7,878 nt of DNA. Origin: a virus (taxonomy: Monodnaviria; Loebvirae; Hofneiviricota; Faserviricetes; Tubulavirales; Inoviridae). The DNA is taken from IMG/VR virus record IMGVR_UViG_2654587726_000001. One strand, given 5' to 3'. The notes below the pieces were generated by a model that saw only the letters and a list, made by a program, of their open reading frames with translations, made no database searches and was not told the DNA's origin. Shown here one piece after another: positions 2,882 through 7,878 of this stretch; the stretch's first letter is position 1; each line of letters starts with the position of its first letter. A program made the position numbers and the translations under genes.

Positions 2882-3055
2882 ATGTCTGTTAATTCGGATT
2901 CAGTTTCCACGCAAATTAATGCTATTTGCGTGGGGATACCTGATGTGTCGGGGATTTATTCCTCGGCGTTTTTAACGGGATTTTCACTGCCAGTATTTTG
3001 TTTTTTTCTTGGCATGATTATTTCCACAATTTGGAGTTTAATAAGGAGACTTTAA
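2882..3055 (+). CDS. Small hydrophobic protein (57 aa), possible minor coat protein (pVII/pIX-like)
   Basis: ORF MSVNSDSVSTQINAICVGIPDVSGIYSSAFLTGFSLPVFCFFLGMIISTIWSLIRRL with hydrophobic C-terminal half; lies between the ssb-like and major coat genes where Ff phages carry gVII/gIX. Below ORF-track cutoff; weak Shine-Dalgarno. Confidence 0.35.
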   Translation: MSVNSDSVSTQINAICVGIPDVSGIYSSAFLTGFSLPVFCFFLGMIISTIWSLIRRL

Positions 3056-3057
3056 TT

Positions 3058-3306
3058 ATGTTTGCAAAAATGACCAATTTTTTTAAGGGTGTTGATAAGA
3101 AAGTTGCAGCTTTATCTTTTTCCGCTGCTTCTGCTCTTGCTGTATCTCCGTCTTTTGCTGGTACAGTCGATTTTTCATCATTGACTAACAGCATTGATAT
3201 GTCTTCTGTTTCTGCTGTTATTCTTTCTATCGGTGTTGCAGGAGTTACAGTTTATCTGACTTTTGCTGGCGTTCGTAAAGTATGGGGAGCCATCAGAAGT
3301 ATCTGA
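3058..3306 (+). CDS. Major coat protein (pVIII-like) precursor
   Basis: ATG 3058 preceded by AGGAGA at 3044-3049. 82 aa: 34-aa signal peptide ending SFA, then a 48-aa mature peptide GTVDFSSL...GVRKVWGAIRSI with acidic N-terminus, hydrophobic core and basic C-terminus. The track start at 2998 is a TTG extension, judged less likely. Confidence 0.8.
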   Translation: MFAKMTNFFKGVDKKVAALSFSAASALAVSPSFAGTVDFSSLTNSIDMSSVSAVILSIGVAGVTVYLTFAGVRKVWGAIRSI

Positions 3307-3322: not shown

Positions 3323-3348
3323 AAGGGCGGATATTCCGCCCTTTTTTT
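3323..3348 (+). terminator. Rho-independent terminator after major coat gene
   Basis: AAGGGCGG (3323-3330), loop ATATT, CCGCCCTT (3336-3343), followed by a 7-T run to 3348. Same placement as the terminator after gVIII in Ff phages. Confidence 0.8.
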
Positions 3349-3440
3349 GGATATTTATGTTTGATTTTATTTTTATGATGTTTGGTTCCCTTTGTGGGTT
3401 ATGTTGCGTCATTGGCTTTAAATCTAATTTGTGAGGTTTT

Positions 3441-3611
3441 ATGTCTACTCAAGAATTTAAAGTTAAATTGCCAGAATACACTATCGAGCAGATAGAAAGA
3501 ATTATTTACAATAAAAATACAACCATTGAAGAATATGTTGTTTCAGTTATTCTTGAAAAAGCCGATCAGGATTTCCGTCGAATTGTAAAACCATTTAGTT
3601 TTTACTGGTGA
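3441..3611 (+). CDS. Hypothetical small hydrophilic protein (56 aa), not part of the canonical inovirus gene set
   Basis: [59 protein letters not shown]; GAGG 4-8 nt upstream; stop at 3609-3611 sits 4 nt before the pIII ATG. Below ORF-track cutoff. Charged, no hydrophobic segment. Confidence 0.35.
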
Positions 3612-3615
3612 TGAA

Positions 3616-5247
<1,632 letters not shown>

Positions 5248-5261
5248 TAATCAGGTGGTGA

Positions 5262-5552
<291 letters not shown>

Positions 5553-5563
5553 GAGGGTGATTT

Positions 5564-7878
<2,315 letters not shown>

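Follow-up and report, generated by a model that had tools for sequence, protein, structure and literature searches.

A small gene between the coat-gene terminator and pIII of an Escherichia coli filamentous prophage encodes a predicted ribbon-helix-helix protein

IMG/VR virus record IMGVR_UViG_2654587726_000001 is a 7,878-nucleotide stretch of DNA (about 7.9 kb; hereafter, the window), nearly all of which is a filamentous (inovirus) prophage of Escherichia coli. We studied the interval between its major coat protein gene and its pIII-like adsorption gene. This interval contains a 56-codon open reading frame (ORF), which we call ORF56 (3441-3611; positions are those of the window, and all features are on the + strand unless we state otherwise). 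We argue that ORF56 is a genuine, lineage-specific gene for a small cytoplasmic protein with a predicted ribbon-helix-helix (RHH) fold, and on balance we lean towards the view that this protein is a DNA-binding regulator.

The coat gene (3058-3306; Phage_Coat_B, E 0.0068; phrog_2186, E 2.9e-14) forms the conserved left flank of the region. It is followed at 3323-3348 by an intrinsic terminator, which we found as an inverted repeat (I4) and by RNA folding: a 9-bp stem (AAGGGCGGA/TCCGCCCTT) with the loop TAT and then a run of seven Ts. The hairpin has a folding energy of -19.4 kcal/mol (z -3.75) and is also present in the diverged relative L006 and in locus L064; a consensus terminator scan did not list it. 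Just 8 nt after the T run is the ATG of ORF25 (3357-3434), a conserved hydrophobic micro-gene of 25 amino acids (MFDFIFMMFGSLCGLCCVIGFKSNL; grand average of hydropathy, or GRAVY, 1.52) that is not annotated in RefSeq. ORF56 comes next, and its stop codon (TGA, 3609-3611) is separated by 4 nt from the ATG of pIII at 3616. The pIII-like gene (3616-5247) encodes 543 amino acids, with a signal peptide, a Gly/Ser/Thr linker, and a C-terminal anchor; we identified it by its position and size and by matches of its C-terminal part to phrog_7187 and phrog_3942. The original prediction, which was made from the sequence alone, had described a 267-bp spacer after the coat-gene terminator with a single ORF of 56 amino acids that ends 4 nt before pIII. 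The hairpin and T run bear out the terminator, and the coordinates and translation of ORF56 are exactly as quoted there, but the spacer also codes for ORF25. The overall arrangement is like that of the Ff phages (M13, fd, and f1), with the coat gene, an intrinsic terminator, the adsorption gene, and then pVI, pI, and pIV. However, Ff is not known to have any gene in the interval from the terminator to gene III, while there are two in this prophage.

RefSeq does annotate the 56-amino-acid ORF (as a hypothetical protein, WP_000107046.1). Its length by itself is weak evidence that it is a gene, because an ORF of this length appears in 2.5% of mononucleotide shuffles of 3349-3615. (The GC content of the ORF56 region is 30%, as compared to 43.6% for the window.) It is conservation that decides the question. 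An exhaustive phmmer search, which took in 1.84 billion cluster representatives, turned up a single diverged relative, P0005 (63 amino acids, 46% identity, E 8.5e-8), which occupies the same slot in another E. coli inovirus (L006), that is, in the order coat, small ORF, pIII, pVI, pI, and pIV. Searching with P0005 as the query added 18 further variants. The family falls into two clades (alignment A2) with about 45-46% amino acid identity between them; our family alignment, and the invariant columns that we describe below, include 23 sequences. The frame is intact in 29 of 29 loci, with 11 different nucleotide alleles, and the start codon is ATG or GTG, either of which is usable. Between the clades, the proportion of synonymous sites that differ (pS) is 0.70-0.78 (about 0.72), while the corresponding proportion for non-synonymous sites (pN) is 0.35-0.39 (about 0.36). 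For comparisons inside clade 2, the pN/pS ratio is about 0.2-0.35. In clade 1, to which the window belongs, there are six non-synonymous differences (all conservative) and one synonymous difference, which is too few to judge.

The most conserved part of the protein is a C-terminal tail (residues 42-54, encoded by 3564-3602), which has the near-invariant motif D-x-D-F-R-x-[IV]-V-K-P-F-S-F. In this tail, 11 of 13 residues are identical between the clades (alignment A2), as compared to about 34% of the residues in the RHH part. Yet the tail has about 8.2 synonymous differences on about 7.8 synonymous sites, with a pN of just 0.19, and even the codon for Ser53 differs (AGT vs TCT). Because the frame is kept between the clades and the tail is conserved even though its synonymous sites are saturated, we can rule out that this is merely a leader of pIII or a chance ORF. 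By these patterns of substitution, ORF56 is a real gene under purifying selection. The original prediction would have fallen if relatives did not preserve the frame, and they do, across 29 loci and two clades. We also noticed that in clade 2 (L006, about 900-937; P0005-P0024), a short run of Gs close to the gene's 3' end puts the isolates into different frames, so that the endings after FSFDF are GGGREIK, GGWS, GWWS, GR, GRLL, or GG. These shifts change the distance to the ATG of pIII from 4 to 14 nt, and these are the two distances that we see across the E. coli loci. The residues beyond the conserved tail appear to be dispensable.

ORF56 is hydrophilic (GRAVY -0.38; net charge -1), and its best 19-residue window has a hydropathy of just 0.43. 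This agrees with the original prediction that the protein has no signal peptide or membrane segment, and a hydrophilic, cytoplasmic character also fits its view that ORF56 is unlikely to be a virion protein. A Shine-Dalgarno-like element (GAGG, 3433-3436) lies 4 nt before the ATG of ORF56 and overlaps the stop codon of ORF25 (TGA, 3432-3434), and the spacing from the stop of ORF25 to the start of ORF56 is 6 nt in both clades. Given this spacing, the translation of ORF25, ORF56, and pIII is probably coupled, and the tight spacing suggests that the chain of coupling has been kept.

The family seems to be confined to E. coli. We found no relatives outside of the two E. coli clades with word-seeded, phmmer, or profile searches or with pattern scans of viral and metagenome contigs, and tblastn of ORF56 against 50,697 phage records gave nothing. 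(One other hit, P0006, with 1840 amino acids and E 7e-4, involves a 20-residue stretch and we consider it to be spurious.) Nor did we find relatives in the closest deposited inoviruses or in 44 distant loci, which supports the original claim that this gene is extra relative to other inoviruses. We did not find any paper on this protein, or on any inovirus with an RHH gene ahead of gene III. ORF56 represents a new sequence family of narrow distribution; its predicted fold is a common one, but its place in the genome is unusual.

ORF25, in contrast, is widespread. The clade-2 version of ORF25 (MWEFIFMMYGSLCGLCCVMGFKSNM) is 80% identical at the amino acid level, with saturated synonymous divergence (dS) and a ratio of non-synonymous to synonymous divergence (dN/dS) of 0.06. 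A profile built from four ORF25 sequences picked up similar peptides in another 30 loci, which come from Haemophilus, Rodentibacter, Mannheimia, Glaesserella, Actinobacillus, Klebsiella michiganensis, Scandinavium, Brenneria, Phytobacter, Arsenophonus, and a metagenome-assembled genome (MAG) from the Burkholderiales, as well as, weakly, from the Yersinia pestis phage YpfPhi. (The distant loci came from an alignment-based scan of genome contigs for pI; a scan with a single pI protein gave none.) The start of pIII is overlapped by the ORF25-like gene, by 4-73 nt and with nothing in between, in about 25 distinct inoviruses that are distant from the window; this is true of most of the loci in which the pIII ORF could be identified. 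Two apparent exceptions, L043 and L062, have large gaps between the ORF25-like gene and pIII, possibly due to degraded pIII genes. The three nearest deposited inoviruses have a coat-to-pIII gap of only 51-110 nt. In the E. coli lineage, the gap from ORF25 to pIII is 181-203 nt and is occupied by ORF56. Since the ORF25-like gene and pIII overlap elsewhere, without ORF56, ORF56 is a lineage-specific insertion between two core genes that otherwise overlap. The ORF25-like micro-genes encode 22-28 amino acids (e.g., L018 6086-6160, L019 6391-6465, and L032 2932-3054), and they span inoviruses of the Enterobacterales and Pasteurellaceae along with the one Burkholderiales MAG. ORF25 might be the missing second tip protein (an analogue of pVII or pIX) or a small membrane factor.

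The two clades of ORF56 are part of a larger divergent block. Comparing the window to L006, the 57-amino-acid gene upstream of the coat gene, the coat protein, pVI, pI, and pIV are 88-98% identical at the amino acid level, with dS of 0.13-0.28 (for the coat protein, 88% and 0.14; pVI, pI, and pIV are 96-98% identical between the two types of cassette). At the terminator, DNA identity falls from 93% to 77%, and across ORF25, ORF56, and pIII up to about residue 480, the synonymous sites are saturated (pS 0.5-0.8). Amino acid identity within this block is 80% for ORF25, about 45% for ORF56, and 43-87% for 60-residue blocks of pIII. In these pIII blocks, pS is 0.51-0.83 up to about residue 480 and then drops to 0.28 and to 0, and identity is back at 88-100% from about 4912. 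The block extends from the terminator (about 3326) to just past an array of 18-bp tandem repeats, or about 3326-5030 in the window and about 620-2400 in L006. The array (4657-4876; 12.2 copies with 96% matches, from Tandem Repeats Finder) encodes the (GSGTGT)n linker of pIII; its copy number varies among isolates, and the length of pIII varies from 517 to 563 amino acids among loci. The type of ORF25, the clade of ORF56, and the type of the N-terminal part of pIII are perfectly linked in 29 of 29 loci. By these comparisons, the terminator, ORF25, ORF56, and the N-terminal part of pIII form an old allelic cassette. The linkage to pIII is suggestive, yet it is also what we would expect because ORF56 adjoins pIII: crossovers at two places, one in the conserved coat gene or terminator and the other within the repeats, suffice.

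Turning to the function of ORF56, we assign the RHH fold to its predicted structure with good confidence. An AlphaFold2 (AF2) model that was built with the family alignment has a mean confidence (predicted local distance difference test, or pLDDT) of 80.3, with an extended N-terminus and helices at residues 12-25 and 29-49; blocks within the helical region have a pLDDT of 85-89. The putative β-strand of the RHH is at residues 5-10 (EFKVKL, encoded by 3453-3470), in which F6, V8, and L10 are hydrophobic and would face the core while E5, K7, and K9 are polar and would face the solvent or DNA. In clade 2, the polar positions are E5, R7, and Q9. The strand is followed in the AF2 model by helix A (residues 12-25), a turn (N26-T27-T28), and the long helix B (residues 29-49), which together are encoded by 3474-3587. 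In clade 2, the turn is N26-I27-T28, and N26 and T28 are invariant in the 23 sequences. So ORF56 has the predicted β-α-α topology and the alternating strand residues of RHH proteins, as well as their turn: N26 and T28 align to G30 and S32 of the Arc repressor, with N in place of the usual G. When we compared the model to predicted structures of viral proteins (BFVD) using Foldseek, most of the top matches that had names were Arc-, CopG-, or ParG-type RHH proteins or repressors, with probabilities of up to 0.99 and template modeling (TM) scores of up to 0.80. The best structural matches of ORF56 are RHH antitoxins (TacA1, TacA2, TacA3, MazE6, CopA, ParD2, PrpA, and RelB). A profile of the family against PDB sequences placed residues 5-40 of ORF56 on residues 9-44 of Arc, in register (E 0.28), and also aligned to the RHH antitoxin KacA (E 1.2), in register over the strand and both helices. 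In the alignment to Arc, residues 5, 7, and 9 fall on Q9, N11, and R13, the residues that contact bases in the Arc-operator complex.

If ORF56 acts as other RHH repressors do, two chains would pair their N-terminal strands (residues 5-10) to form an antiparallel ribbon that reads the major groove of DNA, with residues 5, 7, and 9 (E/K/K here, E/R/Q in the other clade) pointing outward from the ribbon and with the N26-x-T28 turn, where helix B begins, clamping the phosphate backbone. The protein would then regulate transcription in a sequence-specific way, most likely as a repressor or an autoregulator. Its invariant tail would bind to a conserved partner or govern how stable the protein is. 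ORF56 would be made from the late message downstream of the terminator, along with pIII, pVI, pI, and pIV, probably with coupled translation. We infer the dimerization, the DNA binding, the regulatory role, the translational coupling, and the role of the tail. Of the roles that the original prediction suggested, a regulator fits the predicted fold, while host interaction or superinfection exclusion has no direct evidence; the sole hint of these is co-inheritance with the N-terminal domains of pIII, which adjacency could explain.

How does ORF56 compare to known RHH regulators? It resembles Arc and Mnt of phage P22, CopG from plasmids, and omega in its size (45-70 amino acids) and in its predicted strand-helix-helix order. 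The alternating hydrophobic and polar residues of the N-terminal strand, and the polar N-x-T turn before helix B, are also as in Arc and CopG; and the alignment in register to Arc and the Arc- and CopG-type viral models among the top Foldseek matches point the same way. On the other hand, helix B of ORF56 is 21 residues long and leads into a conserved aromatic tail with no counterpart in Arc or CopG, and the gene lies inside a late (morphogenesis) operon instead of at a divergent regulatory region. Other filamentous phages do have small DNA-binding proteins, and by its predicted fold ORF56 would join RstR of CTXphi, YPO2273 of YpfPhi, ORF13 of Pseudomonas phage PMBT54, and the window's own 71-amino-acid gene. 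ORF13 of PMBT54 is omega-like with a reported RHH motif (PMC10534721), and YPO2273 is a homologue of RstR at the rstR position (PMC4266046). But these inovirus regulators are encoded in the regulatory or replication region, usually divergently, while ORF56 is between the coat terminator and pIII. Also, ORF56 is not a paralog of the 71-amino-acid candidate repressor, as the two have no similarity.

Several observations weigh against the view that ORF56 is an RHH-fold regulator. The fold rests on a model of the monomer of a 56-residue protein; the N-terminal strand is unformed in that model, and without the alignment (from the single sequence), the pLDDT is only 60. Against the viral models, no Foldseek match had E below 0.06 (none at E ≤ 0.001), and the matches of the family profile to PDB sequences are not significant (E 0.28 or worse). 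Searches of Pfam, PHROGs, NCBIfam, and PADLOC gave nothing below E 0.01 for ORF56, and none of the 23 members of the family matches a curated RHH family (the best related hit is RelB-like, with E 0.15 and in 4 members). Since there is no significant match to an RHH family, we make the RHH assignment only at the level of the fold. (The weak matches to HTH_40 and Pox_VLTF3 we discarded as noise.) Besides lacking significant sequence similarity to Arc and CopG, ORF56, at a net charge of -1, is less basic than these classical RHH repressors. Selection on the RHH part looks weak, given the six non-synonymous and one synonymous differences within clade 1. The co-inheritance with the N-terminal part of pIII can be explained by adjacency alone. 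Finally, scans of both types of cassette found no conserved promoter-like site near ORF56, and repeat scans of both types found no operator. The original prediction raised the possibility of a promoter within 3349-3440, but a scan found no σ70-like site there, and that interval is coding except for 8 nt. Clade 2 lacks the promoter-like site that lies inside ORF56 (3505-3534, 9/12), and sites of this kind are no commoner than in shuffled sequences; similarly, inverted repeats inside the gene (3526-3557 here; others in L006 and L064) are not conserved and occur at the frequency expected by chance, so we rejected them as operators.

The main rival to a DNA-binding regulator, though we give it a good deal less credence, is that ORF56 is an adaptor with an RHH fold, similar to an antitoxin, whose tail binds the pI ATPase, pIV, ORF25, pIII before its export, or a host factor. 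ORF56 would then restrain or deliver its partner, and DNA binding would be secondary or absent. The slightly acidic charge of ORF56, its antitoxin-like structural matches, and the dominant conservation of its tail keep a protein-binding role in contention. The antitoxins that are its best structural matches have C-terminal extensions that bind their partners, and ORF56, with its predicted RHH head (about 34% identity between the clades) and its more conserved 13-residue tail, has the same layout as RHH type II antitoxins (TacA, ParD, MazE6, CopA, RelB, and KacA), which are likewise acidic to neutral overall. An invariant tail would also fit with the high conservation of candidate partners such as pVI, pI, and pIV across the two types of cassette. 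But there is no adjacent, co-transcribed gene that looks like a toxin, and neither Pfam nor PADLOC gave a match to a toxin or defense family; instead the neighbors are ORF25 and pIII, which are inovirus core genes and are found without ORF56 in many inoviruses. And at just 13-15 residues, the tail is short for a domain that wraps around a toxin.

Two more speculative ideas build on the linkage to pIII. The first, which we consider to be doubtful, is that ORF56 is a specificity factor of the cassette that co-evolves with the receptor-binding half of pIII. The variable RHH head would read a phage or host DNA site that is specific to the type of cassette, while a conserved component, perhaps the pI assembly ATPase or a protein of the host, would be the docking site for the invariant tail. 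If so, the type of adsorption would be linked to gene control, for example by shutting off the receptor and excluding superinfection by phages of the same type, or by gating late-gene expression and assembly in lysogens. This would be a regulatory layer that has not been described for filamentous phages. The second idea, which seems slightly less probable still, is that ORF56 acts together with the receptor-binding domains of pIII as an accessory factor for superinfection exclusion or host range, for example by repressing a host receptor or co-receptor on which phages with that type of pIII depend. The linkage of ORF25, ORF56, and pIII types holds across replication modules, all three are in one block with saturated dS between flanks with dS of 0.13-0.28, and the outward-facing residues of the strand differ by clade (K7/K9 vs R7/Q9). 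But exchange of the N-terminal part of pIII would carry ORF25 and ORF56 along, so linkage is expected from their positions, and ORF56 has no likeness to known exclusion proteins and no match in PADLOC. Superinfection-exclusion peptides of the PfsE type are short hydrophobic peptides of the inner membrane. ORF56 is unlike these in being hydrophilic; it is ORF25 that has a PfsE-like hydrophobic character.

The same morphogenesis module is found with at least four replication or integration modules in E. coli, as we saw by comparing L002-L005, L016, and L064-L072 to the window's 1-2880. These are Rep_trans; an IS110 transposase with Phage_GPA; Phage_GPA at hipBA; and G2P_X_C with Phage_DNA_bind, which is Ff-like. 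(The module with the IS110-family transposase and a 667-amino-acid Phage_GPA endonuclease lies at varied chromosomal sites: next to hcxB, leuO, or yahK.) That ORF56 occurs with at least four such modules argues that it does not serve any one of these systems and that its role is tied to the morphogenesis and adsorption half of the genome or to the host. That ORF56 lies inside the morphogenesis operon and travels with this module, not with the replication modules, might suggest that it is a virion or assembly component, such as a cytoplasmic factor that acts on the packaging signal or on the pI assembly ATPase. RHH proteins with flexible tails, such as ParG and omega, do stimulate partner ATPases of the Walker type. 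We think that an assembly role is quite improbable: related inoviruses that have an ORF25-like gene, pIII, pVI, and pI lack ORF56, so assembly can in general proceed without it, and it has no membrane segment. ORF56 has no homology to Ff genes I-XI or to a PHROG family of filamentous-phage proteins (the best PHROG match has E 0.034 over 17 residues). As for the notion that the frame is not functional, and is a pIII leader, a regulatory RNA, or a frame that arose by chance in AT-rich sequence, we find this scarcely credible, because the frequency of such ORFs in shuffled sequence, the low GC content, the lack of a family match in any library, and the mostly non-synonymous differences within clade 1 are outweighed by the frame and start codon being kept at about 46% amino acid identity, by the preservation of the tail through synonymous changes, by a confident model that consistently matches one fold, and by the absence of any Rfam match in the region.

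The rest of the window is organized as follows. To the left of the coat gene are a Rep_trans replication initiator (1306-2532), a pV-like gene (2542-2877), and the 57-amino-acid gene, whose product has a hydrophobic C-terminus (2882-3055). To the right of pIII are a DUF2523 pVI-like gene (5265-5552), the Zot/pI gene (5564-6622), and the pIV secretin gene (6619-7878). The 71-amino-acid gene is divergent (789-1004, - strand) and belongs to phrog_2503 (E 1.5e-27), whose function is unknown. Its sequence pattern likewise looks like strand-helix-helix, it has no sequence relative in PDB, and it faces the window's best promoter-like site (1076-1105, +; TTTACA-18-TATGAT, 10/12). These are probably the phage repressor and the early promoter.

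At the DNA level, no deposited phage genome matches the window; among deposited phages, those nearest to it are uncultured oral inoviruses, whose pI is 35-40% identical. The coat-to-pIII segment is present in 27 of 5,426 complete E. coli genomes, and the prophages come from human stool and clinical isolates, often in tandem beside hipBA. E. coli E700025 carries the same element (99-100% identical) in tandem copies directly downstream of hipBA, arranged head to tail (L001 6001-13677 and 13935-19677). In several other genomes, 2-4 places match the coat-to-pIII segment, or up to 10 if the whole window is the query. At the left boundary of the prophage is a dif-like sequence (GGTGCACATAA-TGTGACACGCG-TTATGTTGAAA, at about 204-238), and matches to other E. 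coli prophage copies start at 195-205. The dif-like boundary and the tandem copies beside hipBA suggest integration of the XerCD/dif type. The window's left end is not phage DNA in its usual context, as 1-215 is 98% identical to an ISNCY-family transposase gene that is common on enterobacterial plasmids and 397-656 is 88% identical to unannotated E. coli plasmid DNA.

Temperate filamentous prophages in pathogenic strains of E. coli have been poorly characterized. In the phages that we compared, what is exchanged at the adsorption end is an old allelic cassette, a single morphogenesis module has been joined to at least four replication or integration modules, and the coat-to-pIII interval, across a wide clade of inoviruses, conceals a conserved micro-gene. 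If ORF56 turns out to be an ordinary autoregulator, then this would be a useful annotation but not a surprise. But if it is an RHH regulator within the late operon, it would give us a handle on how the membrane-damaging proteins pIII, pI, and pIV are kept quiet or adjusted in the lysogen, a question on which the Ff model is silent.

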